64,000 nucleotides of DNA, taken from NCBI GenBank assembly GCA_021818925.1, contig JAKASU010000001.1, positions 441,568 through 505,567 of the forward strand. The letters run 5' to 3'. Under the pieces are notes generated by a model. The model was given only the letters and a program-made list of their open reading frames with translations. It made no database searches and was not told where the DNA came from. This document shows, in pieces, positions 15,220-40,947 of this stretch. The position numbers and the translations under genes are program-made. Every line of letters begins with the position of its first letter. Within the stretch, counting starts at the first letter, position 1. The stretch comes from Candidatus Micrarchaeota archaeon (GTDB taxonomy: Archaea > Micrarchaeota > Micrarchaeia > Micrarchaeales > CABMGC01).

Positions 15220-15270
15220 TCGATCAGAGCAGGCTTCTCGATAAGCCTAACTAAAATGCACGTTATTGAA

Positions 15271-15342
15271 GGCCTATGCCGGGAGTCGGACCCGGTCCTT
15301 AGGATCCACAGTCCTATATGCAGCCGTTACACCACAAAGGCC
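15271..15342 (-). tRNA. tRNA-His (GTG) with encoded G-1
   Basis: Hand fold: G-1 plus acceptor GCCTTTG/CATAGGC (one T-T mismatch) and discriminator C. Anticodon arm TAGGA-CTGTGGA-TCCTA. T arm CCGGG-TCCGACT-CCCGG. The D stem is weak and the T-loop is atypical (TCC). Confidence 0.6.
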
Positions 15343-15570: not shown

Positions 15571-16344
15571 ATGAGATTAGTATCGCTTAATTTATGGGGA
15601 GGAAGGGCGTATAATAAGTTAACCGAGTTTGTTGAAAGCGAAAAATTGCGCACCGATATATTTTGCTTTCAGGAGGTCCTTGACCTAAAGACCGGAGACA
15701 TAGACCCGGAGGTAAAAGCCGCAATCGAGGAATATCAAAAAAGCGGACGCAAACAAGAACTTAACTTATATTCAAGTCTAAGAGACCTGCTGACTGGTTT
15801 TGAAAGCTTCTTGTCTGAGCCTTATTCTCAAGGAGCAGAGAGGCTGGCAATTTTTGCCAGGAAAGAGTTAAAGGCACAAGTAGAAGTTCTTAAAGTACAC
15901 AGAAAAATTGATGTGATTCTTCATGATAAGCCATTTTGGGTCAGTTGCATAATGCAGCACGCCCAAATTAAAAGAGGCACGCTGTCTTACGACATAGCTC
16001 AGTTACACGGCCTTTGGCAAGGTGGAGGGAAAGCGGATACGCCTGAGAGATTAGAACAGTCTAAAACAATTAACAAACTGATGTCGAAGTTCGGTGAGAG
16101 GAAAGTACTTTGCGGTGACTTTAACCTTGATATAAACACAGAAAGCGTAAGAATGCTTGAAGACTCAATGACTGATTTGATTAGGACACACCGCATAACC
16201 ACAACACGAAGCACTCTAGCTCCTGCCAGGAAAGGAAAAATCGCTGATTATGTCTTTGTCTCTGATAAAATCAAGGTAAATGACTTTGAATTACCAGAAA
16301 CAGAAGCTTCAGACCATCTGCCTTTGTGTTTAGACTTCGAGTAG
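15571..16344 (+). CDS. Endonuclease/exonuclease/phosphatase (EEP) family protein
   Basis: SLNLWGG, FCFQEV, CGDFNL and EASDHLPL motifs. The DNA is AT-rich. Confidence 0.8.
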   Translation: MRLVSLNLWGGRAYNKLTEFVESEKLRTDIFCFQEVLDLKTGDIDPEVKAAIEEYQKSGRKQELNLYSSLRDLLTGFESFLSEPYSQGAERLAIFARKELKAQVEVLKVHRKIDVILHDKPFWVSCIMQHAQIKRGTLSYDIAQLHGLWQGGGKADTPERLEQSKTINKLMSKFGERKVLCGDFNLDINTESVRMLEDSMTDLIRTHRITTTRSTLAPARKGKIADYVFVSDKIKVNDFELPETEASDHLPLCLDFE

Positions 16345-20831: not shown

Positions 20832-20885
20832 GCAATCGTTAAATACCTGGAAAATACATCACTCTTGTACCAATCAGGGAAGATA

Positions 20886-22274
20886 ATGCCCGACGGAACG
20901 GATCTTAGGAAGCTGATAAGGGAAGATATGCAGCACTGCCCCACGTGCGGGAGGCGAGACGGCATAATATACGATGAGAACGGCCAGGCGTTCTGCAGGC
21001 GCGATGGCACGATAATACCAGGCATGGAGAACTACTTCAGGGGAATGCAGAAGACCAGAAACAGCGACACCGGGGAGCTTGAGACCGGCACGGGCTCGTC
21101 CGAATCAGTGGCTATGCACGACATGGGCTTGGCGACGGTGATCGGCAAGAACAACGTGGACGCGCACGGCGGGCACATAAGGGGCCAGATGAGGTCAACG
21201 CTGGATAGACTGCGCACCTGGGACCGCAGGAGCCAGGTCAACAAGTCGGTTGACAGGAACCTTGGGCAGGCGCTGAGCGAGATGGACAGGCTCGCGGGCA
21301 AACTCAACCTTCCGCAGAGCGTGCAGGAGAAGGGCGCCTATATATACAGGAAGGCGCTTGAGAAGGGGCTGATAAGGGGCAGGTCTATAACTTACATGGC
21401 TGCCGCTTCGCTCTATGCGGCGTGCAGGGAGACCGAGACTCCGCGAACGCTCAAGGACATATCCGCAGTCATGGGGGGAACGTACAAGACGAAGAATGAG
21501 ATTGCGAGATCGTATAGGACAATGTTCAGAGAGGGCATCTTCGAAAAGGCGCACGGGGAAGCGCTGGCGCAGGAGGAAGATAAGGAACAGAGCAGGAGCA
21601 CGGTACCGGTACCGGTGCCTGCCAACTACGTTTCCAGGGTCGCTAGCGAGGCGCGCCTGACTGAGAAGACAAAGAGAAGAGCGCTGGAGATGCTTGAGAT
21701 GCCACAGGTGAAGGAGATAATGGCGGGCAAGGAGCCCATGGGGTTCGCTGCAGCCGCGCTCTATCTGGCCTGCACGCTTGAGGGCGAGAACAAGACGCAA
21801 AAGGAGGTGGCAGACGCCGCCAGAGTTACCGAGGTGACGATAAGGAACAGGTACAAGGGCCTGCAGAGCGCGTTGTACGGGAAGCCTGAGCCCGAGTCGA
21901 AGGACGCGTTCCCGGAAAGGCGCGATCCGGTCCCGAAGCTCGAGCATCCGAAGATACAGGACCTGCCCCCGAACACCAGGTTCATGCACCAGGAGATGCT
22001 AAACAGGCTCATCGCTACGGCTAGAACGAGCGGCGCGCCACCCGAAGTACTCAGCAAGACCGTTGAGATCTACGATACGACCATATCTGAGGGCATAAAC
22101 ACGTACCCGAACATTAATTTCGCTGTCGCGTGCCTCGTATCAGCTTACAGGGTGAGCGGGGTAAGCAAGAGCGGCGCTAACTTCAATAGCAAGGACGTGT
22201 CGCCGATAATGGTAAACAGGAACGCCCGCATGATAGAGGAAAGGTTGAATTTGAACATCAAATTGCAGGACTAG
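20886..22274 (+). CDS. tfb: Transcription initiation factor TFB (TFIIB homologue) with C-terminal extension
   Basis: Zn ribbon CPTCG...CRRDG and B-linker HDMGLATVIG. Cyclin repeat 1 LIRGRSITYMAAASLYAACR and repeat 2 PMGFAAAALYLACT...VTEVTIRNRYK, followed by about 130 extra residues. Confidence 0.85.
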   Translation: MPDGTDLRKLIREDMQHCPTCGRRDGIIYDENGQAFCRRDGTIIPGMENYFRGMQKTRNSDTGELETGTGSSESVAMHDMGLATVIGKNNVDAHGGHIRGQMRSTLDRLRTWDRRSQVNKSVDRNLGQALSEMDRLAGKLNLPQSVQEKGAYIYRKALEKGLIRGRSITYMAAASLYAACRETETPRTLKDISAVMGGTYKTKNEIARSYRTMFREGIFEKAHGEALAQEEDKEQSRSTVPVPVPANYVSRVASEARLTEKTKRRALEMLEMPQVKEIMAGKEPMGFAAAALYLACTLEGENKTQKEVADAARVTEVTIRNRYKGLQSALYGKPEPESKDAFPERRDPVPKLEHPKIQDLPPNTRFMHQEMLNRLIATARTSGAPPEVLSKTVEIYDTTISEGINTYPNINFAVACLVSAYRVSGVSKSGANFNSKDVSPIMVNRNARMIEERLNLNIKLQD

Positions 22275-23244: not shown

Positions 23245-23312
23245 GCCTGCCTCTTCTCTCTCCCTATTTTTATTACTTGCCTACGACTACGTTTATAGCA
23301 AAAGGTCACCGC

Positions 23313-24143
23313 ATGCCTCGTATAGGTTACCACATCTCCATCGCCGGCACGATGGACACGGCCCTGGACAGGGCCAGGGAGATAGGCTGCACGTGCATGC
23401 AGATCTTCCCGAGCAATCCGCGCGGATGGGCGGTCAAAGAGCTTGAGAAGACTGAGATTGAGGCGTTCAGGCGTAAGCAGAAGGCGTATGATGTAAGCCC
23501 GGTCTTCGTGCACATGCCATACCTTCCCAACCTCGCGTCGCCCAAGCCAGAGGTCTATGAGAAGTCGAAGACGGCGATGATAGAGGCGCTGCGCAGGTGC
23601 AACATGCTTGGCGCAAGGTACCTGATAGTCCATCTTGGAAGCCACCTTGGCACGGGAGCCGAGGCGGGAAGGGAGAGGGTCGCCGCCGCTGTAAACGAGA
23701 TGGAGAGGCACGCCGGCGAAGTGACCATACTGATGGAGAACGAGGCCGGGCAGCGCAACAGCGTGGGCAGCCGGCTTGACGAGCTTGTCGAGATATACGA
23801 CCGCGTGGACCATGACAGGATAGGCTTCTGCCTCGACACGTGCCACGTCTTTGCGGCGGGCTACGACATAGGAAAGAGGGAGGTCGCGCGCGAGGTCATC
23901 GAGACGCTGGACGTTGACAGGATAGGCTGCATCCACCTGAACGACGCGAAGCATCCTCTCGGATCGGGGCTGGACAGGCACGCTGACATAGGCTTCGGCC
24001 ACATAGGCAGGAGCGGCTTCGAGAACTTCTTCAGCGTGGACGGCGTAAGGGGGAAGCCGATGATAATGGAGACGCCGCTTGTCGAGACTCCCAGGGACGC
24101 TAAGGGCGAGCTAGGACTTGTAAGGAAGCTGCTTGAGGCTTAG
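23313..24143 (+). CDS. nfo: Endonuclease IV (AP endonuclease)
   Basis: IGYHISIAG, VHMPYLPNLASP, LIVHLGSH, MENEAG, CLDTCHVFAAGYD and IHLNDAK. ATG 23313 lies downstream of GTTTATAGC. Confidence 0.9.
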   Translation: MPRIGYHISIAGTMDTALDRAREIGCTCMQIFPSNPRGWAVKELEKTEIEAFRRKQKAYDVSPVFVHMPYLPNLASPKPEVYEKSKTAMIEALRRCNMLGARYLIVHLGSHLGTGAEAGRERVAAAVNEMERHAGEVTILMENEAGQRNSVGSRLDELVEIYDRVDHDRIGFCLDTCHVFAAGYDIGKREVAREVIETLDVDRIGCIHLNDAKHPLGSGLDRHADIGFGHIGRSGFENFFSVDGVRGKPMIMETPLVETPRDAKGELGLVRKLLEA

Positions 24144-24725
24144 GTCCTGCCTTGCGAACGTGAAGACGGTCTGGTGGATGAGAAACCTCAGTTCTTCCTT
24201 GTTCTGCTTCTCGCCTATCTTGACGTAGCCGCGCATGAGCTCCGCAAACCCGGATATCACGTGTCGCTCCGCCGCAACCGACGGCTTGGCCTTGCCCTCG
24301 AGCAGCTCCCACGCGAGCTCCGTCTCCTTCAGCAGCAGTCCCGAGTACAGTATGACCGAAATCCTGGTCCCTTCCAGCTGAACGCCGATATCGTACGCGC
24401 TGTTGAAGAGCGTGGCGGTGAAGAGCACGTCGAAGCTGCTATCCTCGTCCTGCTCTGCGTCGAAGTCCGCCCGCAGCTCTATGCGGTCCGGCCTCAGAAG
24501 CGCCTCGATGTGAGGACTGACGAACAGGGCCTGCCTCCTTCCATAGTCGCGAAGGTCAGAGACCGTTTCGGCGGAATAAGGAACGGCATAGCCTGCGGCC
24601 CCGCGAGCCATGTCCATCCATTCCACCACCTTCGGGGAGAGCAGATAGTGCTCCTTGCGCATCTCGTCATCAAGCCTGAGTACGTTGGTGCGCCGCCGCT
24701 TCATTCCACCATCAAACGTGTCCAC
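24111..24725 (-). CDS. Hypothetical protein (ORFan C of a three-gene set)
   Basis: 204-aa ORF. Its start overlaps the upstream gene's end by 14 nt. Confidence 0.55.
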   Translation of the reverse strand: MDTFDGGMKRRRTNVLRLDDEMRKEHYLLSPKVVEWMDMARGAAGYAVPYSAETVSDLRDYGRRQALFVSPHIEALLRPDRIELRADFDAEQDEDSSFDVLFTATLFNSAYDIGVQLEGTRISVILYSGLLLKETELAWELLEGKAKPSVAAERHVISGFAELMRGYVKIGEKQNKEELRFLIHQTVFTFARQDLSLKQLPYKS

Positions 24726-25797
24726 CGCTCTTGACCAGTATGCTCAGCTCGGACCTGTATGCGCTGGAACTGGCGAGCAGCGTGCCCGTCTCGAACTTCT
24801 CGTGCTTGAGCACGTATCCTGATATTGCAGCAAGCGTCCTAGGGTCCCACTGCCACAGGTTAGAGACATAGATTATGTTGGGGGCATCGCCAGCGGGCAC
24901 ACGCACCAGATAGTCGAGCATGTCGGCATCGAAGGCGTTTATCACGGGCATCTCCTCAGGCTGCATGATGCTGGACACGAGGCAGTATCTCGCCGATCTG
25001 TCTAGCACCGTCTCGCGAATATCGCCGTTTCTGTCCTTTGCCCTCGTCACGGCGGCGCCGTCGGTGTCTACGCAGACCTCGCCCACCTGCCTCCCGGTCC
25101 AGGTATCGACCACCTCGGCGGCATCTCCGGAAAGCATCGGGCCTACAAAGCTCCCGTGTTCGGCGTGCATGCGCCTTCTCTGGCGCGAGCCTCTCTCCCT
25201 AAAGTGCAGATCTCCGAATCCGCAGGCGAACAGGCCTCTCTCATTAGCGTATATCTCGTTTGGCGATTCGCTATTGGAGCGCACAACACCTCCCTTCCTC
25301 TTTGGCATGAAGGCTGTGCCGCTTGCTCTCATCTCGTTCTCCATCTCAGCAAGCAGACGGAGGTTCATCACCTGCGCCTCGTTTACGTCCATGCCTGCAA
25401 CGCTCTCAAGTCTCTTGCCAGACAGCGCCAGCGAGACAGTCATTCTCAGGAACTGGTCTCCGCCGCCTATTATTCCTGCGAACCTCAGGCTTTCGACCGA
25501 GGACCTCTCCACGGCACTGTTCAGAAGCGAGAGGCTTGCATTGATTGGCTCATTGCTCATGCTGAAGCCCAGGTCGGCCTCATCGCCATCATTCATCCAG
25601 GCGGCAACGGGTCGACTTGCGCGGATGAACCTAGAGCCGCCGTATATCAGCTTGAAGCCCGAAGCCGTCTGCTTCTCCAACCCGTGCCTTTCCAGAAATT
25701 CCAGCCCGAATGCTTCCCTGCGCAGCATACGCAACCCATCGTTTGCGCTGCGGCAGATTGAATCGTGCTGAATGCGCTTCTGGTTCTCCCCTTCCAT
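24712..25797 (-). CDS. Hypothetical protein (ORFan B)
   Basis: 361-aa ORF with no recognised motif. The antisense 283-aa ORF is judged spurious. Confidence 0.55.
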   Translation of the reverse strand: MEGENQKRIQHDSICRSANDGLRMLRREAFGLEFLERHGLEKQTASGFKLIYGGSRFIRASRPVAAWMNDGDEADLGFSMSNEPINASLSLLNSAVERSSVESLRFAGIIGGGDQFLRMTVSLALSGKRLESVAGMDVNEAQVMNLRLLAEMENEMRASGTAFMPKRKGGVVRSNSESPNEIYANERGLFACGFGDLHFRERGSRQRRRMHAEHGSFVGPMLSGDAAEVVDTWTGRQVGEVCVDTDGAAVTRAKDRNGDIRETVLDRSARYCLVSSIMQPEEMPVINAFDADMLDYLVRVPAGDAPNIIYVSNLWQWDPRTLAAISGYVLKHEKFETGTLLASSSAYRSELSILVKSGGHV

Positions 25798-25846
25798 TGA
25801 AGCATCTTCAAATCTGGCTAGGTTTCCTGCCTTTAAATATATTCTT

Positions 25847-26428
25847 TCAGGACTGTTCCGTGCTTACCGGAGCCTCCATTGGCAGCCTCTTGGTCTCCCT
25901 GAGCTCCTCCTGCACGCCGAGCAGTATCGTTGACTTCGCGTCCTCGAGCGAGGCGTAGTCCACCTTGTCGTTCTGGAACTTGAACGGGCCCACGACAATT
26001 GCACAGACGTCGTGTTCGGAGAGCTCAACCGGCTCGTCCCTCAGGTCCTTGACCACCAGCCCGTGCCTGTTCACCCTGTCAGAGTAGTAGTTCAATGCGA
26101 GTTCGAAGTCGTCGCGCGGGTAGACCATTGCCGCGAAGAAGGCTATTCTGCCATCAGCAGGGCTGTCCTCGCTGAGCATCAGCACCTTCTTCGGTTTCTC
26201 CAGGAGTGCTGTGTGCATGCTCACGGTATCGGCTACAAACCTGCCGAAGAGCATGGCGTCACCCAGGAAGTTATCGGCCCTCTTCAGGAACCGGAGCCCA
26301 GCGTCGCTGAGCCTGTCTGCTACCTGGTCGGGCTTTATGCTGGCGAATACGCTTATGCCGCTCTCGCGGAGCAGCCTCTGGTTCGCCATCCCCAGCCTGC
26401 TCCCGTCGATATGCTTAGAACCCTCCAT
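25847..26428 (-). CDS. Hypothetical protein (ORFan A)
   Basis: 193-aa ORF, 46 nt downstream of the membrane/pilin-like gene on the same strand. Confidence 0.55.
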   Translation of the reverse strand: MEGSKHIDGSRLGMANQRLLRESGISVFASIKPDQVADRLSDAGLRFLKRADNFLGDAMLFGRFVADTVSMHTALLEKPKKVLMLSEDSPADGRIAFFAAMVYPRDDFELALNYYSDRVNRHGLVVKDLRDEPVELSEHDVCAIVVGPFKFQNDKVDYASLEDAKSTILLGVQEELRETKRLPMEAPVSTEQS

Positions 26429-26474
26429 GCTTGCTCGGATAGGAGTTTGTCAGGCCTGTTTTTAAGGATTGGCG

Positions 26475-27464
26475 TTATCTGCTCAGGGAGGTGAGGTTCT
26501 CGCCGGCTGTGTTGTTCACGTGCACGAGTGGGGGCACCGATGTCATGTTGTAGTACACCTGTATGTGCGCGGTCTGCAGCGGAGTGGCCTGGCTGCCCGG
26601 ATGGTATGCGACCCAGAGTATGCCGTTGAACGGCGCAGAGGCGTTGCTTATCCCGTAGCACGGCAGGTCCCGCGCGCGTATGGGCGAGCCGGCGGTTATA
26701 GATGTTCCAGGAAGCCCCTGACTAAAGGTTCCGTTCGCCTGCAGGTAGTAGAACTGGTACTGTGATGGCGTCTCGAATCCGAAGCCGTTAGTGCAGGCGA
26801 TGTCGAGGTTGTAGAGCGTGTCGTTGGTGTCGTTGGAGTAGAGGGTAAATGAGAGGTTCGCGGGCGCGGAGAGCACGGGAGCACCGCAGTTGAATGGCTG
26901 GTCGCGCTCTATGGTGGAGCAGCCCGAGTACTTTACTATTGTGGTCGTGAGCGTGCTGGTGGAGGACGTGGTGGCTATCGTGCTAGTGGTGTTGAGCGAG
27001 GTGGTCGTAGTGCTCGCCGGCGCTATCTGCGCGGCTCCGTTTATGCCGAAGAAAACAAGTGCGCTGACTACCGCTATGATCGCTATCGCGAGCACGTAGA
27101 CGTTCTGCTCCATCCTGCGCCCCTGGCCCCTCTTCATGTTGAGGACTATGTACAAGGAGAGGAGCGTAAAGACCAGGTTGAAGGCGAGCTCTGCGATGCT
27201 GACGGTTCTGGTGAGCGCGAAGATTACGGAGAGGACGACATAGCCGGCCGCGAAGGCGAGCTGCTCGTCGACGAGCGGGGCCACAAGGCCGACGACCACA
27301 ATCACAAGCGCCAGGCTCGACAGCGAGGCTATGCCTGTGAGCGCGGCAATACCGGTTCCCTGGAGCAGCTCCAGCAGCTGGCTGAGAAACGCGACGAACA
27401 GTCCGGCGGCGAACTCCTTGTATATCTCCTGCATTCCGTGCTTCATCCTGCTTGGTGTTTTCAT
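26475..27464 (-). CDS. Polytopic membrane protein fused to a Thr-rich linker and a pilin-like glycosylated ectodomain
   Basis: About 5 hydrophobic helices in aa 15-160, then linker TTTTSLNTTSTIATTSSTSTLTTTIV. The C-terminal domain has 9 sequons, Cys pairs and FNGILWVAY (compare FTGYLTINY in the pilin at 48535..49020). Confidence 0.7.
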   Translation of the reverse strand: MKTPSRMKHGMQEIYKEFAAGLFVAFLSQLLELLQGTGIAALTGIASLSSLALVIVVVGLVAPLVDEQLAFAAGYVVLSVIFALTRTVSIAELAFNLVFTLLSLYIVLNMKRGQGRRMEQNVYVLAIAIIAVVSALVFFGINGAAQIAPASTTTTSLNTTSTIATTSSTSTLTTTIVKYSGCSTIERDQPFNCGAPVLSAPANLSFTLYSNDTNDTLYNLDIACTNGFGFETPSQYQFYYLQANGTFSQGLPGTSITAGSPIRARDLPCYGISNASAPFNGILWVAYHPGSQATPLQTAHIQVYYNMTSVPPLVHVNNTAGENLTSLSR

Positions 27465-27492
27465 GTAGTGCGTCGCCTGTTACGGTGTTTGT

Positions 27493-29214
27493 ATGATGTG
27501 TGCTAATAAAAAGGTTATAGTACTGGGAAAAGTGAAGAGGGAGTTGCGTTTGTGCAGGCGTTTTGGCCTGTTGAGATGGCAGTGGAAGAGGAGGTGGCTC
27601 TTCAATGCTATGAGGCTCGATCCCGCAAGGAACCTGAACTCGCACATGATGATAACCGGAGAGAGCGGTGCGGGGAAGAGCAGCGTGTGCAAGCAGATAC
27701 TTGTGCAGCTGGCGAACGCGGGAGCCAACTTCGTTGTGCTGGACCCCCATGCGGAGTACGTTGAGCACGCGAAGGAGATGCGTGCAGCTATGTACGATGC
27801 GAGCATGCACGCCATAAATCCCTTCGACCTGGACGGCCTAACGGAGAGAGAGCGCACCGCGGAGATAACGGCCATGCTGAGAAGAATCCTACGCCTGGGA
27901 GAGGTGCAGGCATCCACGCTGCACCGCTGCATAAGCTACACGTACTGGATAAGCAAAGTCAGGGACGCGGGGCCGAGCATGCACAGCCTGCTCTACACGA
28001 TAAAGGTATTCAAGCGCAGGGCGAGGAGCAAGCCGGAGGTGAACCTGCTCGACGCCCTTGAGAAGCGCCTGCTTGTCATAGCCGGCGAGAGCTTCCGCAG
28101 GAACGTGTCGATGGGGAGCGTGATGCATGGCAGAAGCATCTTCGCGCTGCAGGGGCTGCACAGCGCCGAGGCCCAGGCGATATATATGGAGTCGATGCTT
28201 CGAAAAATATACACGAACATTCTGCAAGAAGGTTCGCGAAGAAAGGGGAGGTTCTACATAGTCATAGACGAGGCCGAGAAGCTGCAGGACAGCCCGGTAG
28301 TCGGTAGGCTCGTGGCGGAGGGCAGGAAGTACGGGATAGGCATGATAGCGATATCGCAGAGGGCGAAGGCGCTGGACAAGGAGATACGCAGCAACGCGGC
28401 TACGATGATCGCGTTCGCACAGAGGGAGCCCGAGGAGCAGAACTACGTGGCGAACATGATCGCTGCGGGAACCGAGTACAACAGGTTCATCGAGGTAAGA
28501 AAGGCGCTGAGGGAACTGCCGAGAGGCTCCGCAATGGTGCAGGAGTCAAGAGGCAGGGGCCCGAGGATAGTGAGGTGCGGGCGTTTTGAGGCGAAGAAGA
28601 GGGACCCGGGCCACAGGATAATCGAGATGGCGAGAGGGGTGGTGAGCAAGCAGGAATTGGTTGAGAGGTTGGGAAAAGAGGGTTTTACTCCGGAGGAAAC
28701 GATTGGCAGCGTGGCTGAACTGATAAGGGCGGGCACGCTGAATTATCACGTGGTTACTGAGTCGCATTACGAGGGGACTTGGTATATAGCGATGCCGAGG
28801 AACAGCGCAGAACACGACATAATGGTCAATCTGATAAGCAGGTACCTGACTGAAAACGGGATAAGGAACGAGGTATACAACAACGCTTATGGGCCGGATG
28901 TGATTGCGTACAAGGACGGGAAGAGGTTCGCGGTGGAGTACGAGACCGGGAAGAAAAAGGCACGCGACACGCTCATCATGCTGGGAAAGAGGCAGGAACG
29001 CTACTACAAAACCATTCTCATAGGAAATAATGAGGTGAGTGTCATGCGTGCGGGGCGGGGCTCTGCCGCTCCGCCACTTGGCTCTACTATAAGTATTAGA
29101 ACAACCAATGCTTACAGCAGGCGAACCGATGACAATGGAAAAAAGCCCGGGGATCTTCGTTCTTCTCATGAAGAACACGAACAGGATGGAGCTGGACAAG
29201 GACATAATGCATAA
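27493..29214 (+). CDS. DUF87/HerA-FtsK-type P-loop ATPase with winged-helix and PD-(D/E)xK-like C-terminal region
   Basis: Walker A ITGESGAGKSS and Walker B FYIVIDEAEKL, plus GRKYGIGMIAISQRAKALDKEIRSNAATMIAF. The C-terminus carries EHD...GPDVIAY...AVEYETGKK. The start could instead be ATG 27610. The last roughly 60 residues are low-complexity and may not be real. Confidence 0.8.
   Translation: MMCANKKVIVLGKVKRELRLCRRFGLLRWQWKRRWLFNAMRLDPARNLNSHMMITGESGAGKSSVCKQILVQLANAGANFVVLDPHAEYVEHAKEMRAAMYDASMHAINPFDLDGLTERERTAEITAMLRRILRLGEVQASTLHRCISYTYWISKVRDAGPSMHSLLYTIKVFKRRARSKPEVNLLDALEKRLLVIAGESFRRNVSMGSVMHGRSIFALQGLHSAEAQAIYMESMLRKIYTNILQEGSRRKGRFYIVIDEAEKLQDSPVVGRLVAEGRKYGIGMIAISQRAKALDKEIRSNAATMIAFAQREPEEQNYVANMIAAGTEYNRFIEVRKALRELPRGSAMVQESRGRGPRIVRCGRFEAKKRDPGHRIIEMARGVVSKQELVERLGKEGFTPEETIGSVAELIRAGTLNYHVVTESHYEGTWYIAMPRNSAEHDIMVNLISRYLTENGIRNEVYNNAYGPDVIAYKDGKRFAVEYETGKKKARDTLIMLGKRQERYYKTILIGNNEVSVMRAGRGSAAPPLGSTISIRTTNAYSRRTDDNGKKPGDLRSSHEEHEQDGAGQGHNA
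27503..27520. promoter_or_regulatory. A/T-rich segment AATAAAAAGGTTATAG in the divergent region between the membrane/pilin-like gene and the ATPase gene
   Basis: It is the only A/T-rich stretch between ATG 27464 (minus strand) and the candidate ATPase starts. Confidence 0.35.
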
Positions 29215-29323
29215 GATGGGCCTGAGCAAGATAGGCTACATGCTCGACAAGGACTACCTGATGACAAGGAGGGAGGACCTAAGGGGAGCGATAAGGGAGC
29301 TGAAAAGATGGCACCTGCTCTGA
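29129..29323 (+). CDS. Small hypothetical protein (64 aa)
   Basis: MTMEKSPGIFVLLMKNTNRMELDKDIMHKMGLSK... TATAAGTATT lies about 35 nt upstream. Overlaps the doubtful tail of the ATPase ORF in another frame. Confidence 0.35.
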   Translation: MTMEKSPGIFVLLMKNTNRMELDKDIMHKMGLSKIGYMLDKDYLMTRREDLRGAIRELKRWHLL

Positions 29324-29388: not shown

Positions 29389-29580
29389 ATGAAAGGAAAA
29401 GTGAAGATGTTCAATGCCGCGCGCGGCTTTGGATTCATAACTGGAGACGACGGAAAGGACGTGTACGTACACACCTCGGCGATAGCGGGAGGAGCGGCAC
29501 TGGCCGTGGGAGACGAGGTCGAGTACGAGGTAGAGGAAGGAGAGCGCGGGCCCAGAGCGAAGAACGTCAAGAAACTCTGA
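29389..29580 (+). CDS. csp: Cold-shock domain protein
   Basis: MKGKVKMFNAARGFGFITGDDGKDVYVHTSAI (RNP1/RNP2 motifs). 63 aa. Confidence 0.9.
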   Translation: MKGKVKMFNAARGFGFITGDDGKDVYVHTSAIAGGAALAVGDEVEYEVEEGERGPRAKNVKKL

Positions 29581-33561: not shown

Positions 33562-34455
33562 CTATCCTCCCAGCAGCGATTTGAACATAAGGACGAGATG
33601 GCTCTCCTCTCTGAGCCTTCTCAGCGAGTAGTCTATCCATCTTGTTCCAAATGGCACGTATATCGCGACGCTGTTGCCCTGCTCGGCCAGCTCGGCCGCA
33701 TACCCGTTCCTTATGCCATTGAGCATCGCGTATGTGACCTTCCTCCTGTGAGACCTGTTGAGGAGCATCGCCTCTTTTATCAGCGAGCTGTCGTGCGTCG
33801 CTATTGTGAACTCCTTCAGGTGAGAGAACGCATCGTGCATCAGTGATCTGTAGTTTGCTGTTGTATCTTTCCGGGTCACGAAGGCTATCTTGCCGCTCTC
33901 GCTGTACGCGCCCTTTACTATCCTGACAACCGCCTTCCTCTTCGCAAGCCTTTCTAGGTTCTTCCCGCTCCTCCTGAGGTATGCCTGCACCGTTATGCCA
34001 ACGCCCCCTCTCGCCACCTGCCCCTCGTATATCGATATCGCGTCATCGATCGTGTCCTGCGTCTCCGCGTCGAGCCAGACGAAGACTCCTCTCTTCCTCG
34101 CCTCGACGACTATCCTGCTGTAGTTCTTCCTTGCCATCGCTCTGCTGACCCGCAGGCCAAGGGCAGTAAGCTTCAGCGAGACGCTCGCCCGCAGCTTCGC
34201 CTTCTTTATCTCCTTGATCAGGCGAATGTTCGTGGAAACTGCGTCAGCTATGTCGTGCTTGTCCGTAAGGTCCTCGCCTATGTGGTTGATTATGGCGCTC
34301 ATTCCCAGGGCGTTGAGCTGCCTGGTTCTTCTCAGCGCGTCTTCTATCCTCGCCCCGGCTATCCACTTGCCTGCGAATATGCGCTCGGCGACGTTTCCTA
34401 TGCCCACGAAGTTAGTTGGGCATAGAAAGATATGAAGTTTGGGGTAGGAAAGCAT
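33562..34455 (-). CDS. Proline dehydrogenase family protein
   Basis: SLKLTALGL, VWLDAE, ITVQAYLRRS, VRIVKGAY, ATHD, YAMLNGIR and YVPFG...W..Y..RRL pattern. Confidence 0.8.
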   Translation of the reverse strand: MLSYPKLHIFLCPTNFVGIGNVAERIFAGKWIAGARIEDALRRTRQLNALGMSAIINHIGEDLTDKHDIADAVSTNIRLIKEIKKAKLRASVSLKLTALGLRVSRAMARKNYSRIVVEARKRGVFVWLDAETQDTIDDAISIYEGQVARGGVGITVQAYLRRSGKNLERLAKRKAVVRIVKGAYSESGKIAFVTRKDTTANYRSLMHDAFSHLKEFTIATHDSSLIKEAMLLNRSHRRKVTYAMLNGIRNGYAAELAEQGNSVAIYVPFGTRWIDYSLRRLREESHLVLMFKSLLGG

Positions 34456-34520
34456 TGGAAAATGTTTACCAAAAAAGCCATAATCAGAACCAAGTTCGCC
34501 CTTGGGAACTTAGGTTATCT

Positions 34521-35528
34521 TCATTCCCATTTTACTACGACGTAGTTTGTTTTTATGTCTAGGTTCCTAAGCGGAAGCACGCCTTTCAGCACCTTTGTTA
34601 TCCTTGCGTGCTTGATCTCGATCTTATCCTTTTCGTATATTCGCTTGTGCTTGTTCACTGCCCTTTGGAGAGCTTCAACTTTATCGTTGAATATGCCGAG
34701 TATGAAGTTGCCGTAGCTGCCAGTGAGTGGGGCGGACAGCTGAAAGGTATCGAGCAACGGCAGCTCTTTATCAGCGTTGATGAGCACAGCCCTGTCCTGC
34801 ATAGCACGCTCCTCGTAATTAGGGGTTATATAGTTCCAGAACTCGAAAAAGATGAGGATGTATCTCTGTGGCGGCTTCTGCACAGCGATGGTGAATCTTT
34901 TTATTATGCCAGACTTCTTCAGCTTGAAGACTTTGTACCTTACCGTATCTTCGTTAATGTTGAGCTGCCTGCCAAGCTCGCTGTAGCTCGTCCTCGAGTT
35001 CTTGTTGAGCAAACGGAGGAGCTCGCGGTCGCTACTGTCGATCTTCATCTCCTTCCTTATATCATACACAAAGTTGTCGTTCAGTGGGATGTAGCCAAAA
35101 TTCAGGAACGAGATATCAGAGGGCTTCATATTGGGTGTGTATGGTGAGAGCATCTCGGCAAGGTGCGTCTCCCAAACGATGTAATCTATGGGGTTGCTCG
35201 CAGTTGCAATAACTACAAGGTCGAAATCACCTTCCGTAAGGTAGACGTCGTGTACGTACTTCTCCTCTTTGGTGAACAGGTCCTCGAGCACTCCGGGCTG
35301 GGGCTTTTTAGGTAGTTTTATGGCAATCACGTGCCTGTCTAGCGCGCCTAGGGTGTTAAGGTCAATCTCCAAGGTGAACCTTATGTCGAGCTCTTTGCTC
35401 AACGCATCCAGAAGCTTCCCTGCCGTGACACGCGAGCATTTCGCTACCTTCGCGATGCGTGTTACCGAGGCACGGGAGTCGTTACTCAGTTCCCTGAGCA
35501 TCAGCTTCTCGCGTACGCCTAAGTTCAT
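34521..35528 (-). CDS. Tandem Lrp/AsnC-type HTH transcriptional regulator
   Basis: Two HTH_AsnC-like segments (LRELSNDSRASVTRIAKVAKCSRVTAGKLL and LLRLLNKNSRTSYSELGRQLNINEDTVRYKVFKLKKSGII). Confidence 0.75.
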   Translation of the reverse strand: MNLGVREKLMLRELSNDSRASVTRIAKVAKCSRVTAGKLLDALSKELDIRFTLEIDLNTLGALDRHVIAIKLPKKPQPGVLEDLFTKEEKYVHDVYLTEGDFDLVVIATASNPIDYIVWETHLAEMLSPYTPNMKPSDISFLNFGYIPLNDNFVYDIRKEMKIDSSDRELLRLLNKNSRTSYSELGRQLNINEDTVRYKVFKLKKSGIIKRFTIAVQKPPQRYILIFFEFWNYITPNYEERAMQDRAVLINADKELPLLDTFQLSAPLTGSYGNFILGIFNDKVEALQRAVNKHKRIYEKDKIEIKHARITKVLKGVLPLRNLDIKTNYVVVKWE

Positions 35529-35597
35529 ACGCTACTATATCAGCTAAGATATATATGCTTTACACTATACGAAAAAATTGTAAATAAAATTGAGTTT

Positions 35598-36929
35598 ATG
35601 GAAAGTATTAAATCCTTAAGAAAGACATTGCTTATCGGTGTGATGGAAACAAAACGCAAGGGATTCCTTGTGCTGGCCGTCCTCGTTCTCGAGTCGGTCT
35701 TCGTGCCAATAGCACTAGATGTAGGGGGATTGCAGATAGGCGTAGCACCGCTTCTGCTCTACTCGCTCCTGATTGCAACAGGCATAGGAGCGCTTGCCTC
35801 CTACTTTGACGACCATGGCAAGGGCTTTTTTGAGCTCTTCTCCAGAAAGATGTTTTTACCGATGCTAGCCGCAGGGCTGCTCGGATACGCAGCCACAATG
35901 CTGCTGCAGGGACTCGGCACCGTAGGCACTAATCCAAGCGTCAGCGCAGTAGTGTGGAGGAGCTGGGTGATAATGCTAGCTATACTGACTCCTGTGATGC
36001 TGAAACAGCGGGTAACGCGGAAGGAATATTTGGGAATAGGTCTGGGAATGCTGAGCGTATATCTTGTAATGACTGGAGGCACCCTAGTCAGCATAAACAC
36101 TCAGGAACTGCCTTTCATTGCTATGCTTCTCCTCTCGGGGTTCGCCATGACTGTATCTACACTCTTGATGAAGAGGTACAGCGCTAGCACTACAGGTTTC
36201 AACCTGCTCGCCGTGGTTGCCTCTCTTGCCTTCATGGCGTTCTTCGTATTTGTATACCATCTGAACATAGCAGTCAGCTTTTCGAAATCTACAATACTGT
36301 CCATCCTATTGCTAGGCGTCATGGAAACTGGACTCGGCGCGATATTATATTACGAAGCCTTCAAGCGCCTAAATAACGCGTTTGTGGGGGGCTCTATGCT
36401 TTCTGTTCCTTTGCTTACGGTCTTTTTCTCTACGATACTGATAGGCACGTCGCTTGCTACTTACTATATAGTTGCCGCAGGGTTGCTCGCAGTGGCTATG
36501 TTCGTATTGAGGGATCTGCCGTCAAAGGCTCCGCAGCACATAACTTCATCTGACCTGCTTAGGGGGGTGTGGATGTTCGACATAACCAGTGCGTTCGTGG
36601 ACAACAAGTCTGAGGAGATCAACACTTACATACGTGGCGACAACAGGGCACTTGGAATCAAGATCAATGAGAGGAAGGCTCAGTATGACGGTGACATAAG
36701 TTCGTATGAAGGTGAAAACTACATCATTTTCACCGATAAAAATCCACATCCCAAAGTAAGCCGGCAGGAAATTGAGTTCATAAGGGGCATAATGGAGATT
36801 GAGAATGGCGAGACGGCGGTTATCGGCATTGGCAAGACTCCTCAGATAGAATCTGCGTTTGCGAAGATTTACGACGAGAATAACAGGAACTACTTTACGA
36901 AAACCGATAAATTTACCAATAAAATTTAG
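35598..36929 (+). CDS. DMT/EamA-like permease with about 130-aa soluble C-terminal domain
   Basis: About 10 hydrophobic helices followed by a hydrophilic tail. Confidence 0.7.
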   Translation: MESIKSLRKTLLIGVMETKRKGFLVLAVLVLESVFVPIALDVGGLQIGVAPLLLYSLLIATGIGALASYFDDHGKGFFELFSRKMFLPMLAAGLLGYAATMLLQGLGTVGTNPSVSAVVWRSWVIMLAILTPVMLKQRVTRKEYLGIGLGMLSVYLVMTGGTLVSINTQELPFIAMLLLSGFAMTVSTLLMKRYSASTTGFNLLAVVASLAFMAFFVFVYHLNIAVSFSKSTILSILLLGVMETGLGAILYYEAFKRLNNAFVGGSMLSVPLLTVFFSTILIGTSLATYYIVAAGLLAVAMFVLRDLPSKAPQHITSSDLLRGVWMFDITSAFVDNKSEEINTYIRGDNRALGIKINERKAQYDGDISSYEGENYIIFTDKNPHPKVSRQEIEFIRGIMEIENGETAVIGIGKTPQIESAFAKIYDENNRNYFTKTDKFTNKI

Positions 36930-37241
36930 AATACGGAAATAATTATAAAGGAGTAGACGCATATTCTATACTCGTGGGCTTGGGGCCGGTTTAATGATGA
37001 GGTGGGCGATTCTTAATCACATACTCACTCTCCCTACTTTATCCTACCCTACTGCCGGTTCCTGCCCATCATATTGAGTGTTTTTATGAGAGTACCCTTC
37101 GCAAGAGCGTCTCGTGCCGAGGCTGCAAAGGCTGCGGACCAGGACAGGAATGAGCGCGAGAAGCTTGTAAGATGGATAAAGGAGCGGGACAACGTCTGGC
37201 GCGTTGTCTACGCTGAATAGGCTTCTGTTTTTGGTGGGGCA

Positions 37242-37520
37242 ATGGGAAGGGTCGCTAGGAAGAACAATACCGAGACGAAAGGTCAATTCGCATTCTATCT
37301 GATAGAACCGAGAGACAACTCCGACGCGGACAGGTTCGCACGCAAACTCATCGCATCGAAGCATGTGAAAGAGGTTTACGTGACCGAGGGCGCGTGTGGC
37401 TTCATAGTCAAGGCGAAGGTTATGGGCAACGAGCGCAGCAACCCAATACCCACCAGCTTTCTTGGAAACCAGTGTAGAAAGGTAGTTCTTGCGATAAGCA
37501 GCTATTCGTACAGGAAGTAG
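37242..37520 (+). CDS. Small protein, possibly a stand-alone Lrp/AsnC ligand-binding-like domain
   Basis: FAFYLIEPRD...VKEVYVTEGACGFIVKAKV pattern. The overlapping 191-aa minus-strand ORF is judged spurious. Confidence 0.4.
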   Translation: MGRVARKNNTETKGQFAFYLIEPRDNSDADRFARKLIASKHVKEVYVTEGACGFIVKAKVMGNERSNPIPTSFLGNQCRKVVLAISSYSYRK

Positions 37521-37582
37521 CACAGTAAAACTTTCACGAATATATAAATAGACACCAGCGCATTTAGGAGAAGGCCGGGGGG

Positions 37583-38428
37583 ATGCAATTGGATAGAAAC
37601 GGCACAAAACCTGACGCACTGGTACTCTGCGGCGGATATGGGACTCGGCTTGAGCCGATTTCTGAGTTCGTGCCGAAAGCGCTGCTTCCAGTGAGAGGCA
37701 AACCGATCATAAACCATATCATAGGAGACACATATGGTCTGGTGGACAGAATAATAGTGTCTACAAACGTGAAATTCGCAGACCAGTTCGCCTACTGGGT
37801 GAAAAACAAGGAACTGGAGCCCATGCGGGAAAAACTTAGTTTTGTAATAGACCCATCTACAAAAGAAAAGGAGAAGCTAGGCGTGGTGAGAGGTACAGCT
37901 TATGCGATAGAGAAAGCACGGTTGGACAAGGGCATCATCATATTCTCCAGTGACGTATTCCGTGAGTTTAGCATAAAGGCGTTTATCACGCAGTTCAGCG
38001 AGACACCGAAGCCAGCCATATTGCTCAGAGATCTTACAGAATATGGCATACTGGCAGGCTCACACGTCTCATGGGACGCATTTGTCGAACTCAACGCTAA
38101 ATTGGAGGAAGTGAGAAGACGCACACTTACCTGTGGTGTCATTGCATGTCCACCAGGCATCGCATCGAAGATTTCGGACTATTCAAGAGTTGGTGGCAAT
38201 CCTGACTCTCTGAGCGCCTTTGTGAGGTGGTTGGGCAAGGACGGTAATTTAGAGCTAGTAACTTCGACAGGCATAAGCTACGACATAGGCACCATAGAAG
38301 CATATAGGATGTTGGTCAGGGAGAAAAGGGATTCTGATGTGTCTGAAAAGGAGGTGGGAGTAAGTGGACCACAAGAACGTGACGTTGCTTGCCCAGCGGA
38401 CATTGAGGGCGTTACACATGCCAATTGA
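37583..38428 (+). CDS. Sugar-phosphate nucleotidyltransferase family protein
   Basis: N-terminal LVLCGGYGTRLEPISEFVPKALLPVRGKPII signature. Confidence 0.75.
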   Translation: MQLDRNGTKPDALVLCGGYGTRLEPISEFVPKALLPVRGKPIINHIIGDTYGLVDRIIVSTNVKFADQFAYWVKNKELEPMREKLSFVIDPSTKEKEKLGVVRGTAYAIEKARLDKGIIIFSSDVFREFSIKAFITQFSETPKPAILLRDLTEYGILAGSHVSWDAFVELNAKLEEVRRRTLTCGVIACPPGIASKISDYSRVGGNPDSLSAFVRWLGKDGNLELVTSTGISYDIGTIEAYRMLVREKRDSDVSEKEVGVSGPQERDVACPADIEGVTHAN

Positions 38429-40259
38429 GGATAAACTTGCTGACGCTCTGAGCGAATTGAACCTCATTCCATATCTTACAAGCGACAACAAGCAGGATGA
38501 TGGAGAAAAACTAGGAGACGTACTATATAGAAGTCTATCATACGAGCAGGTTCAGAGTGACAACTCTAAATGGTGGATCACGGACAGCATAGACAGCGAC
38601 TTCCAGTATTACATACAATTGATTAACGCGGGTTATCTCGGCGATTTCCTGCGCAGGTTACGCAACCAAAAACTCTCTGTGGAAGACATATACGAATGCA
38701 GAAGCATAATGTTCCGTAGCCTTCTCGGAAAGTACACGCACTCTGGTCTAAGGAGGTACATTAACACGCGCGGTAGGGATATTGCCGTCCACAGAGATGA
38801 GATTGGAAAAAACCTTAATACTCTGGTAGAAATGTTCAACCGCAGAGCAGAAACTGGAGAAGAGGCACTTGTTAATGCCGTGACCTTGCTCATGGATTTT
38901 GCCAAAGTGCACCCTTTTGAAGAGGGTGTCAGCAGACTAAGCCGCACATTTGCCAACACTTACCTCTACATGCACAACATAAGACCGCTGAGAATGAGTG
39001 ATGAGAGGGATAGAACCTACCGCTACCTGACAATACACAGTCTTGGTGACTACCTGGGTGGCTTTGTTGGTGCTGTAGCCTACGCAATCATGTCCAAAGA
39101 AGAGGTTGATGCATTCTGCAACGGATTAGCAGATGTGCGGACAACCAACCTTCACTCTATCGAAATAAAAGACACTATACTCTGGCTTGCGGGCCATAAA
39201 GTGGATTACGTTAAAGACGTTGCATTGTTATCAAAAGCGGGATTTGAATCCAAGGACGCATCATTGGAAAAGGCAGCGCTTTGGCTCAGCTGGCTGACGA
39301 AGACGATAGACCGAAAGCTTATTGAGAAGGCGCTCAATGGAGATGATGACACTGTAAGAGCACTGGCGATAATCGTTGCGGCTGACCTTGACATCGAGAC
39401 ATATGGGAAAAAATTAAAAGAACTGGCAAGGGGAGATACATCCGAAAGCAGGATTGCCGCGCTCATTGTGCTTAACGAGCATGGATTGCTAAGTAAAGAT
39501 TTTGTGGCTGAAGAGCTGCGCAGCGAGAAGGACGAAAGGTTTCTCACGATACTTTGCATGCAACTCAAATACTCACCAAACCAAAAGGAGTTTCTGGACA
39601 TACTTAAGGAGCTGACCGACAGTCAATATGCAGGCGTTAGGGTCGGTGCATATTATGCACTCGCTACTCATTTCTCAGAAACAGAAATGTTGAAGGCGCT
39701 ATGCAAGACTGAAGGTCTGCAAGACGAAGTGAGAAAAGTTATTGTCGAAGAAGCTGTTGCACGTAAGGAAGAGTACGGCGTAGCCGTGGCCCTTTCAGAG
39801 AGCATGCTCAAAGATCAGCTCACACGACGCATAATGCTAGGGGAGCTTACAAAAAAAGCCACCATAAATGCAGCGTATTTAGACTCGCTGGAATGGATAG
39901 CTACATCGGAGTCGTATGAACCGTTAGAGAGAGCCTACGCCGCGTATCTCGTTGGTAGAGAAAAAGGATTCGCCCATCTATCCGAAGCGCTTGGCATGAA
40001 GATCGAGAAAGAAACACCATTCATAATCAGTCTCGCCCTAGCCAGCGTTCATGAGGAAGAAAAGAGAGCAAAGAATCCGTTCAAATCTGAATTGCGAATT
40101 GTGCGAAACTACAGACAGAACCTTGAGTTTGCACTAAAGCTTCATAAGGAAGGCATCGCGATGGAACTTTCGAATCAAAACGATGCATACCGCAATCTGG
40201 AATTCAAGGCAGTTTTTGATTTCGTTTCTGTAAATATGCAGGGAAAGGTGAAGAATTAG
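38364..40259 (+). CDS. Fic/Fido-domain protein with degenerate active-site motif and HEAT-like repeats
   Basis: HPFEEGVSRLSR stands in place of HPFx(D/E)GNGRxxR. The C-terminal half has HEAT-like repeats. GTG 38364 is preceded by AAGGAGGTG and overlaps the upstream gene by 65 nt. Confidence 0.7.
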   Translation: MDHKNVTLLAQRTLRALHMPIEDKLADALSELNLIPYLTSDNKQDDGEKLGDVLYRSLSYEQVQSDNSKWWITDSIDSDFQYYIQLINAGYLGDFLRRLRNQKLSVEDIYECRSIMFRSLLGKYTHSGLRRYINTRGRDIAVHRDEIGKNLNTLVEMFNRRAETGEEALVNAVTLLMDFAKVHPFEEGVSRLSRTFANTYLYMHNIRPLRMSDERDRTYRYLTIHSLGDYLGGFVGAVAYAIMSKEEVDAFCNGLADVRTTNLHSIEIKDTILWLAGHKVDYVKDVALLSKAGFESKDASLEKAALWLSWLTKTIDRKLIEKALNGDDDTVRALAIIVAADLDIETYGKKLKELARGDTSESRIAALIVLNEHGLLSKDFVAEELRSEKDERFLTILCMQLKYSPNQKEFLDILKELTDSQYAGVRVGAYYALATHFSETEMLKALCKTEGLQDEVRKVIVEEAVARKEEYGVAVALSESMLKDQLTRRIMLGELTKKATINAAYLDSLEWIATSESYEPLERAYAAYLVGREKGFAHLSEALGMKIEKETPFIISLALASVHEEEKRAKNPFKSELRIVRNYRQNLEFALKLHKEGIAMELSNQNDAYRNLEFKAVFDFVSVNMQGKVKN

Positions 40260-40314
40260 GACTGCACAGATGGTTATTAACCGTTGCAAGCAAAGGTGTT
40301 AAGGAGGGAGGTAC

Positions 40315-40926: not shown

Positions 40927-40947
40927 TCGTTACAGTTTGGGGATAAA

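Follow-up and report, generated by a model that had tools for sequence, protein, structure and literature searches.

A HerA-superfamily ATPase with a nuclease-like domain beside the endonuclease IV gene of Micrarchaeota: a locus read as a mosaic rather than as one system

Motors that act together with a nuclease are known in several forms, such as the PINA-Hjc pair of Sulfolobus. DUF4297-HerA is likewise an ATPase that is paired with a nuclease of the PD-(D/E)XK type (PMC11291478), and the transfer-related ATPases CedB and CedD carry a transmembrane segment and a VirB4-like N-domain (PMC11868833). The locus described here comes from a Micrarchaeota (DPANN) archaeon and lies in a stretch of 64,000 nucleotides (contig JAKASU010000001.1, positions 441,568 to 505,567), which is referred to as the window and in which all of the coordinates are counted unless a related locus is named. 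It includes nfo, the gene of endonuclease IV, an ATPase gene downstream of it, four genes placed between these two on the opposite strand, and a short downstream pair formed by orf71 and a cold-shock gene. The same locus, with an identical island, is found in two further assemblies of the species.

The interpretation favored here is that of a mosaic of three layers, rather than one system, to which a probability of roughly 0.68 is given. The first layer would be a two-gene unit, in which nfo is followed by a soluble ATPase that contains a winged helix and an Hjc-like PD-(D/E)XK domain. The second, restricted to a single sub-clade, would be the spacer between these genes, turned into a site of gene turnover, which in the window holds the membrane protein gene mem329 and members of the fast-evolving families B, C, and A. 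The third would be orf71 and the cold-shock gene, a separate conserved pair. The structural part of this interpretation, i.e., the mosaic nature of the locus, nfo as the partner of the ATPase, and the island as an insertion specific to one lineage, is considered likely. What is new here is the fusion in cis of a motor to a winged helix-turn-helix (wHTH) and an Hjc-like nuclease domain, together with a linkage to nfo that extends throughout the phylum. To our knowledge, no operon of Nfo with a HerA-like motor-nuclease has been described, and full-text searches of the literature for a link of nfo with a motor-nuclease, or for the repair genes of Micrarchaeota, gave nothing relevant.

The endonuclease IV gene and the ATPase

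The upstream gene is a clear apurinic/apyrimidinic (AP) endonuclease, given that the Pfam model AP_endonuc_2 scores far above its threshold of 31.1 bits and covers residues 30–276 (Table 1), and translation probably begins at the ATG at 23313 (MPRIGYH...). The linkage with the ATPase was surveyed by tblastn in a sample of 48 loci with members of the ATPase family, which were obtained from a genome scan, a scan of metagenomes in which the family alignment served as the query, and contig look-ups, and are labeled L001 and so on. In all 30 loci in which the sequence extends 900 nt or more upstream of the ATPase, nfo is found upstream of it on the same strand, with a gap of at most 150 nt in 18 of the 30, which by ORF (open reading frame) calls ranges from -14 to +22 nt in 14 of these. 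The identities of nfo and the ATPase to their window counterparts also drop in parallel (82/82, 78/78, 76/76, 73/70, and so on down to 43–50/43–54%), as expected of genes that are inherited together. Where the ATPase is at most 49% identical to that of the window, nearly all of the loci have it abutting nfo, the exceptions being L014 and L039, with 0.5–0.6 kb between the two genes. The genes downstream of the ATPase vary between clades.

More than 160 homologues of the ATPase were found, at 40–84% identity, and all of the organism names given belong to metagenome-assembled genomes of Micrarchaeota, with a few labeled Marsarchaeota. The family is phylum-wide in Micrarchaeota, nfo is its conserved partner gene, and the pair is probably ancestral and vertically inherited across the phylum. 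A gene for a nuclease of the ExoIII type (Exo_endo_phos) lies at 15571–16344, 8 kb from nfo, so that this genome carries both of the AP-endonuclease families close together.

The assignment of the ATPase to the P-loop ATPases of the DUF87/HerA-superfamily type, made in an earlier note on this DNA, is confirmed by three Pfam models above their gathering thresholds, i.e., AAA_10 (49.9 bits, cut-off 27.5), TrwB_AAD_bind (42.7, cut-off 20.5), and DUF87 (42.4, cut-off 23.2). In an alignment of 28 members (40–84% identity), the invariant positions of the core are G56, S58, G59, G61, K62, S63, E260, EGRKY at 276–280, and REPEE at 311–315. The AlphaFold2 model of the protein, with a predicted local distance difference test (pLDDT) score of 83 and a predicted template modeling (pTM) score of 0.80, is made up of five parts, namely, beta-strands at residues 9–42, a RecA-like core at ~46–365, a winged helix at 373–433, a domain of alpha-beta-beta-beta-alpha-beta topology at 437–521, and a disordered tail. 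When this model was compared with the PDB by Foldseek, it matched HerA (4d2i), the C-domain of DndH (7es4, with a TM-score of 0.75 on the target), VirB4 (4ag5), and TrwB (1e9s), at E-values of 1e-15 to 1e-12, and HerA proteins also rank first in a PDB profile search of the ATPase.

The matches with the NCBIfam equivalogs of CedD, CedB, HerA, VirB4, TraC, and TraD are weak (27–59 bits against cut-offs of 325–1177), and the PADLOC models mad8 (7e-25), HerA (1e-18), and DndH (3e-14) match on the ATPase core. No transmembrane segment is found by hydropathy in the L052 orthologue and no transmembrane helix is seen in the model of the window protein, while the N-terminal part is, as modeled, too short for a HAS barrel or a VirB4-like N-domain. 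The ATPase is a soluble member of the FtsK/HerA superfamily, and it stands outside HerA proper, VirB4, CedB, CedD, and the named defense families.

The nuclease-like tail that had been claimed for the ATPase is upheld at the level of the fold, through the structure model and the fold search. When the C-terminal 157 residues are modeled alone (pLDDT 91.3), the alpha-beta-beta-beta-alpha-beta topology is found. The first half of this C-terminal model, i.e., the wHTH, matches the regulators 1sfx, 5zi8, and 6abt. The best PDB fold matches of the nuclease-like domain are structures of the archaeal Holliday-junction resolvase Hjc (2eo0, 2wcz, and 1gef), with E-values of 1e-3 to 7e-3 and TM-scores on the target of 0.38–0.44, and other nucleases of the restriction-endonuclease fold, namely, the splicing endonuclease and the nuclease domains of FokI, McrC, and Bax1, are also matched. 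In the 28-sequence alignment, the invariant residues of the C-terminus are N437, E440, H441, G467-P468-D469, and E482-Y483-E484. In terms of the (D/E)xK signature, E440, P468-D469, and E482 are invariant, the position of the Lys is taken by the invariant Glu E484, and K488 is conserved in most sequences, although not in all. A Glu at the Lys position of (D/E)xK is also known from BamHI. The PDB profile search of the C-terminus for nucleases returned noise only, and, when a Hjc sequence of Pyrococcus was compared by hhalign, the alignment was limited to one helix in the wHTH region, at a probability of 3%. The nuclease assignment, as read from the predicted structure, is valid at the fold level only.

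Beyond this domain, the read-through tail has a coding score of -0.60 and a G+C content at third codon positions (GC3) of 0.30, and it overlaps orf71 in another frame; the coding score is the log-odds of codon usage per codon, under a model whose training set was 16 confident genes from the window. The ancestral stop codon of the ATPase has apparently been lost in the lineage of the window and in L001.

A role for the pair can be outlined from these features. The homology with HerA, VirB4, and TrwB suggests that the ATPase would form a ring which translocates on DNA with ATP, the fold and the invariant E440, D469, E482, and E484 suggest that the built-in nuclease would cut the DNA being handled, with the winged helix aiding the binding, and the universal, often overlapping adjacency of nfo points to DNA repair as the process in which the two would work. 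In this scheme, Nfo may incise abasic sites or clean blocked 3' ends, and the motor-nuclease may process the resulting nick, end, or branched intermediate, in which case the motor encoded beside nfo would correspond, as a single chain, to HerA-NurA or to a branch-migration motor paired with Hjc. This specific mechanism is proposed tentatively and is given slightly less than an even chance.

The island between the two genes and the downstream pair

The ORF listing gives four minus-strand ORFs (204, 361, 193, and 329 aa) opposite the single plus-strand ORF of 573 aa, which is the arrangement of four co-directional genes facing a plus-strand gene that the earlier note had described, and it also agrees on the 14 nt shared by the ORFs of 204 and 361 aa. 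All four are coding by the codon-usage model (+0.34 to +0.63 per codon, GC3 of 0.71–0.80), and the long ORFs antisense to them have negative scores, so that both the strand assignment and the coding status hold. The divergent promoter region between mem329 and the ATPase, said to be short and rich in A/T, is indeed short, but not A/T-rich (Table 1). The A/T-rich stretch, at 27500–27522, falls within the ATPase ORF, in codons 3–10, the coding of which is conserved in the orthologues, and the start at 27493 is backed by an N-terminus that the orthologues conserve (GKVxxELxL...RWxWKR), and which in the window reads MMCANKKVIVLGKV. The promoters of the divergent pair must overlap the two coding regions.

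Upstream of orf361, at ~40 nt, there is a TATA-like box (AATATATTTAAAG), and another is found ~35 nt upstream of orf193 (CCTTAAAAAC). Given these elements of their own, the four genes are not obviously one operon, the overlapping pair of orf361 and orf204 aside. At the other end of the island, orf204 and nfo are convergent, and the two share 33 nt at the 3' end of nfo. In the comparison of strains with the two other assemblies of the species, there are only 0–4 differing sites per gene, too few for selection to be read from the ratio of nonsynonymous to synonymous polymorphism (pN/pS).

An insertion between nfo and the ATPase is present in all of the loci in which the ATPase is at least 59% identical to that of the window, which is the definition of the sub-clade adopted here, and its content varies among the 11 islands counted, from no gene to seven genes, which like pyrG lie on the minus strand (Table 1). 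In two of the more distant members of the sub-clade, for example, the space is occupied by pyrG, which encodes CTP synthase. The four facing genes of the window are absent from all of the more distant genomes surveyed. The genes of the island have native codon usage and G+C content, and searches for flanking repeats or att sites around it yielded chance-level matches only. The simplest history is that of an ancestral nfo-ATPase operon, the spacer of which was turned into a site of insertion and turnover in one sub-clade. The undescribed multi-gene system that had been proposed around the ATPase is not supported by this comparison, in which the conserved neighbor is nfo and, within the sub-clade, the facing genes are replaced by nothing in L009 and by pyrG in L004 and L005.

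Compared pairwise and by profiles, the island proteins fall into three families, of which A comprises orf204, L001_243, L003_216, L003_223, L047_203, L048_224, L049_208, and L052_212, and B comprises orf193, L001_189, L010_208, L010_196, L048_203, and L052_190. The homologues of orf204 in the same island of other genomes are 17–31% identical to it. In the case of orf361, a word-indexed search returned orf361 alone, and an exhaustive HMMER search of 1.84 billion representatives recovered six relatives, at 28–33% identity, which form family C. One of these, P0139 (385 aa), is encoded in the island of L052, where the order from the ATPase to nfo is 112-C-B-A, and others are found at unrelated archaeal loci (L054 8001–9149 and L055 8001–8699). 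The relatives in L054 and L055 match orf361 or its C-terminal ~90 residues, and have genes for primase, TBP, topoisomerase, or ribosomal proteins as neighbors. One relative of family C is labeled 'Baltobacteraceae bacterium', though its contig encodes archaeal informational genes, and this label is probably a binning error.

Members of the three families are 17–38% identical between genomes in which nfo and the ATPase are 59–82% identical, which indicates that A, B, and C evolve far faster than their flanks. No transmembrane segments are found in their proteins by hydropathy, and the searches of Pfam, NCBIfam, PADLOC, the PHROGs, and PDB sequences gave no meaningful match, in line with the view that the three proteins have no recognizable motifs. 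Their status as ORFans stands in the sense that no known family is matched, but they are not strict orphans, given their divergent homologues in related Micrarchaeota. Similarly, their co-localization in other genomes holds within the narrow sub-clade, where the families recur in the island of eight of the 11 genomes, and fails in the more distant ones. Families A and B align in hhalign at a probability of 15%, with the aligned segments in register, and on this basis they may be distantly related.

A motif of orf361 (IIGGGDQF...VAGMDVNE) had suggested a divergent class I methyltransferase, but hhalign against the methyltransferases and all of the other proteins of the islands, as well as Pfam, came back empty. 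Small genes resembling class I S-adenosylmethionine (SAM) methyltransferases do exist in two islands (L003 6436–6903 and L047 8969–9571), with clear Pfam matches for the 200-aa protein of L047 and sub-threshold matches for the 155-aa protein of L003; the island of the window is without one.

Next to the ATPase, the product of mem329 is a polytopic membrane protein with an ectodomain, as had been predicted and as hydropathy agrees, with a charge pattern that places the C-terminus outside. In four orthologues (54–84% identity), the ectodomain is far more conserved than the transmembrane part, and it has four invariant Cys and several conserved N-x-S/T sequons. The protein, which is rich in Thr and contains Cys, is probably a glycoprotein. 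The searches of Pfam, NCBIfam, PADLOC, and PHROG with mem329 gave no match. The gene is present in three of the 11 islands of the sub-clade, at another island position in L047, and in none of the distant loci, while the position proximal to the ATPase is occupied in L001, L047, and L052 by small transmembrane proteins unrelated to mem329. The pilin-like module assigned to it finds no support, either in the position of the signal peptide or in the family searches: there is no N-terminal class III signal peptide and no match with a pilin model of Pfam or NCBIfam, and the ectodomain is preceded by four other transmembrane helices, with [KR]G at residues 112–113 followed by 8–9 polar residues before the last helix.

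On the other side of the ATPase, the ORF of 64 aa that had been reported does exist, but it reaches 71 aa when read from its first ATG, overlaps the 3' end of the ATPase by 107 nt, and goes with the cold-shock gene rather than the ATPase. This orf71 is 56–86% identical in L001, L007, and L008, beside the cold-shock gene each time, and in L047 a called gene of 64 aa sits in the corresponding place, with the ATPase on one side and the cold-shock gene on the other. The genome of L003 has its orf71 and cold-shock genes (L008) ~63 kb away from the ATPase. The two genes are a conserved pair that is independent of the ATPase.

Table 1. Features of the locus in the window and contents of the nfo-ATPase space at related loci (positions in nt; L-numbers refer to the loci sampled)
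Feature	Position or size	Strand	Remarks
Endonuclease IV (nfo, AP endonuclease)	23277–24143	+	Pfam AP_endonuc_2, 175.6 bits
orf204, family A	24111–24725	-	204 aa, soluble; coding score +0.47
orf361, family C	24712–25797	-	361 aa, soluble; coding score +0.34
orf193, family B	25847–26428	-	193 aa, soluble; coding score +0.63
mem329	26475–27464	-	329 aa, ~5 transmembrane helices, Thr-rich stalk at ~150–175, ectodomain of ~140 aa; hydropathy
Divergent spacer	27465–27492	strandless	28 nt, ~46% A+T; read from the sequence
ATPase ORF	27493–29214	+	573 aa; ORF listing
ATPase N-terminal beta-strands	27493–27627	+	residues 1–45, basic, Trp-rich; AlphaFold2 strands 9–23, 26–33, 39–42; conserved W29, W31, F37
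FtsK/HerA-superfamily P-loop ATPase core	27628–28587	+	Walker A GESGAGKS (56–63), Walker B IDEAE (E260), EGRKYG (276–281)
Winged helix-turn-helix domain	28609–28791	+	residues 373–433; AlphaFold2 H-H-H-E-E, pLDDT >90
PD-(D/E)XK, Hjc-like domain (fold level)	28801–29055	+	residues 437–521; AlphaFold2 domain model
Non-conserved read-through tail of the ATPase	29056–29214	+	residues 522–573; pLDDT 25–39, most homologues without the tail
orf71	29108–29323	+	71 aa from the first ATG (29108), 64 aa from the second (29129); coding score +0.82
Cold-shock-domain protein	29389–29580	+	Pfam CSD, 79.1 bits
Insertion in L009	350 nt		no gene
Insertion in L049	0.76 kb		one gene
Insertion in L010	1.3 kb		two genes
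Insertion in L001	1.6 kb		three genes
Insertion in L004, L005	1.7 kb		CTP synthase (pyrG)
Insertion in L047, L048, L052	2.7–2.9 kb		four genes
Insertion in the window	3.35 kb		four genes
Insertion in L003	5.7 kb		seven genes
pyrG in the nfo-ATPase space	L004 8325–9932, L005 8318–9928	-	two more distant sub-clade genomes

Some other features of the window were recorded. The region at 34000–42000 is poor in G+C (0.47–0.50, as against 0.55–0.59 elsewhere), and the two genes tested in it (35598–36929 and 38364–40259) are atypical in codon usage; it encodes an AsnC-type helix-turn-helix protein, an EamA transporter, an NTP-transferase, a 631-aa protein that combines Fic with HEAT repeats, and two NUDIX hydrolases, and may have been acquired horizontally. 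A tRNA-His gene lies at 15270–15342. The homologue of transcription factor B (TFB) at 20865–22274 has 469 aa, with ~130 residues after the two TFIIB cyclin repeats and a spacer of ~100 residues after the Zn ribbon, and the TFB orthologue of L001 equals it in length.

The alternatives weighed

Several points weigh against the interpretation of the locus as a mosaic with a repair pair at its core. In the nuclease-like domain, the canonical Lys of (D/E)XK is replaced by a Glu (E482-Y-E484), the Foldseek matches with Hjc are modest (E ~1e-3, TM-scores of 0.3–0.44), and no similarity with nucleases is found at the sequence level, where the Pfam search of the isolated C-terminal 154 residues is empty even at an E-value of 10. 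The sample of loci is metagenomic and biased, with many of the 48 being short, and the repair role of the ATPase-nuclease is drawn from gene order and fold. Finally, A, B, and C are island families which, in the sub-clade, are always at this locus, with family A adjoining nfo in seven of the eight genomes that have it, which leaves room for a functional tie with nfo or the ATPase.

This last point is central to the alternative that survives best, in which the island would be an accessory module of the nfo/ATPase pair in the sub-clade, with A, B, and C as fast-evolving regulators, inhibitors, or adaptors. A profile search of 487 kb of related sequence found no further copies of A or B away from this locus, and two genomes, i.e., the window and that of L052, whose ATPases share 70% identity, have all three families. 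On the other side, the presence of the families is patchy (A in eight, B in five, and C in two of the 11 genomes), B and C do not keep the same order from one genome to another, and family C is also found at loci unrelated to this one. The genes are also placed on the strand opposite to the pair, with promoter-like elements of their own in the case of orf361 and orf193, while other members of the sub-clade have pyrG or nothing at the same spot. An accessory module is unlikely, and the genes of the island most likely do not work as partners of the ATPase.

A bolder version, in which A, B, and C, with or without mem329, would make up an undescribed, fast-evolving module of conflict or host interaction in one Micrarchaeota sub-clade, anchored at the nfo/ATPase locus and acting on or via the motor-nuclease, for example as inhibitors or specificity factors, is a long shot. 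If it were true, the split repair operon would lie at the heart of a novel type of system in this DPANN symbiont.

An anti-virus defense system, in which the ATPase-nuclease would be the effector and the ORFans its sensors or partners, in the manner of SIR2-HerA, DUF4297-HerA, Dnd with DndH, or MADS, is very improbable. The PADLOC matches of the ATPase with mad8, HerA, and DndH, its fold, which is near the C-domain of DndH and the HerAs of defense, and the variable, fast-evolving neighbors, which are typical of defense islands, all speak for such a system. These matches are nevertheless confined to the generic ATPase core, and neither the neighbors nor orf71 have any, apart from a noise match at an E-value of 0.04. 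The partner genes of known systems are missing, with no SIR2, DUF4297, NurA, Dnd, or other mad gene nearby. The ATPase is fixed beside nfo in every related genome sampled, and diverges in step with it, whereas the genes of defense systems are usually patchy, and the ATPase is retained, with none of the ORFan families beside it, in L009, L004, L005, and no fewer than 18 distant genomes. The logic of a defense system, as outlined in the earlier note, finds neither its partner genes nor the expected mode of inheritance.

The variable content of the island, its genes without known relatives, and its insertion between two conserved genes would also be seen if it were what is left of an integrated mobile element or provirus, which is a still more doubtful explanation. 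No integrase is present, the nearest tRNAs are at 15.3 kb and 55.2 kb, and there are no flanking direct repeats. In addition, the codon usage and G+C content are native, no PHROG is matched, and the viral contigs scanned with the ATPase and with mem329 contained no relatives of either.

Finally, a DNA-transfer machine of the Ced/Ted or conjugation type, with mem329 as a VirB6/CedA-like channel plus pilin and the ATPase as a VirB4/CedB-like motor, can practically be dismissed, and is refuted at the level of family membership: the ATPase shares its superfamily with VirB4, CedB, CedD, and TrwB, matches the fold of VirB4 and TrwB, and is divergent from a membrane protein gene in five genomes of the sub-clade (mem329 in L003 and the window, small transmembrane proteins in L001, L047, and L052), but its scores for CedD (59.3 against 600), CedB (38.6 against 700), and VirB4_CagE (27.1 against 643) fall far below the cut-offs, it has 45 residues before Walker A, no transmembrane segment, and a C-terminal nuclease domain instead, mem329 has neither a family match nor a class III signal peptide and is missing from eight of the 11 islands and all of the distant loci, and the universal neighbor is the gene of a repair nuclease, not of a membrane protein. 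The transfer logic put forward at first fails, in other words, in its scores, domain architecture, and partner genes.

Comparison with known systems

Under the mosaic interpretation, the locus drops out of the list of Ced-like transfer machines and of defense systems, which removes a false lead. The island provides a clean case of a split operon that becomes a site of gene turnover, with very fast lineage-specific families. Micrarchaeota are genome-reduced DPANN symbionts, in which the DNA-repair equipment is poorly known, and, if the proposed role is true, nfo and the motor-nuclease would represent a compact alternative to the multi-subunit HerA-NurA or to a branch-migration motor with Hjc.

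The upstream gene is a clear member of the endonuclease IV family, as its AP_endonuc_2 score indicates. The ATPase resembles CedB, CedD, and VirB4 in its superfamily and in the weak similarity of profiles and fold across the core, and differs from them in lacking both the transmembrane segment and the VirB4-like N-domain, in having a nuclease domain, and in the absence of a conserved partner similar to CedA/VirB6 or pilin. The defense ATPases HerA, DndH, and DptH resemble it in the ATPase core, in that the C-domain of DndH provides the best TM-score and that the mad8 match spans the whole of the ATPase core. In those systems, however, the nuclease is a separate subunit, whereas here it is fused, and the partner genes are missing from a locus in which the ATPase is syntenic rather than patchy.

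With regard to Hjc, the C-terminal domain has it as the best structural match and shares the alpha-beta-beta-beta-alpha-beta core, with acidic residues at the expected positions. The match is one of fold, with HMMER and hhalign empty, ExE is found in place of ExK, and the domain is fused behind a motor and a winged helix, while Hjc is a free-standing dimer.

HerA-NurA, the archaeal motor plus nuclease of DNA end resection, is similar in that the ATPase has the RecA-like core of the HerA clade, with the EGRKYG and SQR motifs and HerA as the top PDB match in both sequence and fold, and in that a motor is coupled to a nuclease in a neighborhood of repair genes. On the other hand, the ATPase has no HAS barrel, with three short strands in the 45 residues before Walker A, and its scores for the NCBIfam models NF040937 (46.7 against 800) and NF040819 (44.7 against 970) are far from the cut-offs. 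Its nuclease is part of the same chain, with a predicted PD-(D/E)XK fold in place of that of NurA, and the neighbor is nfo, and not nurA, mre11, or rad50; no NurA-like gene was called at the loci, where a hydrolase or other genes are found downstream. By analogy, the closest counterparts of this putative motor-nuclease would be the motor-plus-nuclease pairs HerA-NurA, DUF4297-HerA, and PINA-Hjc.

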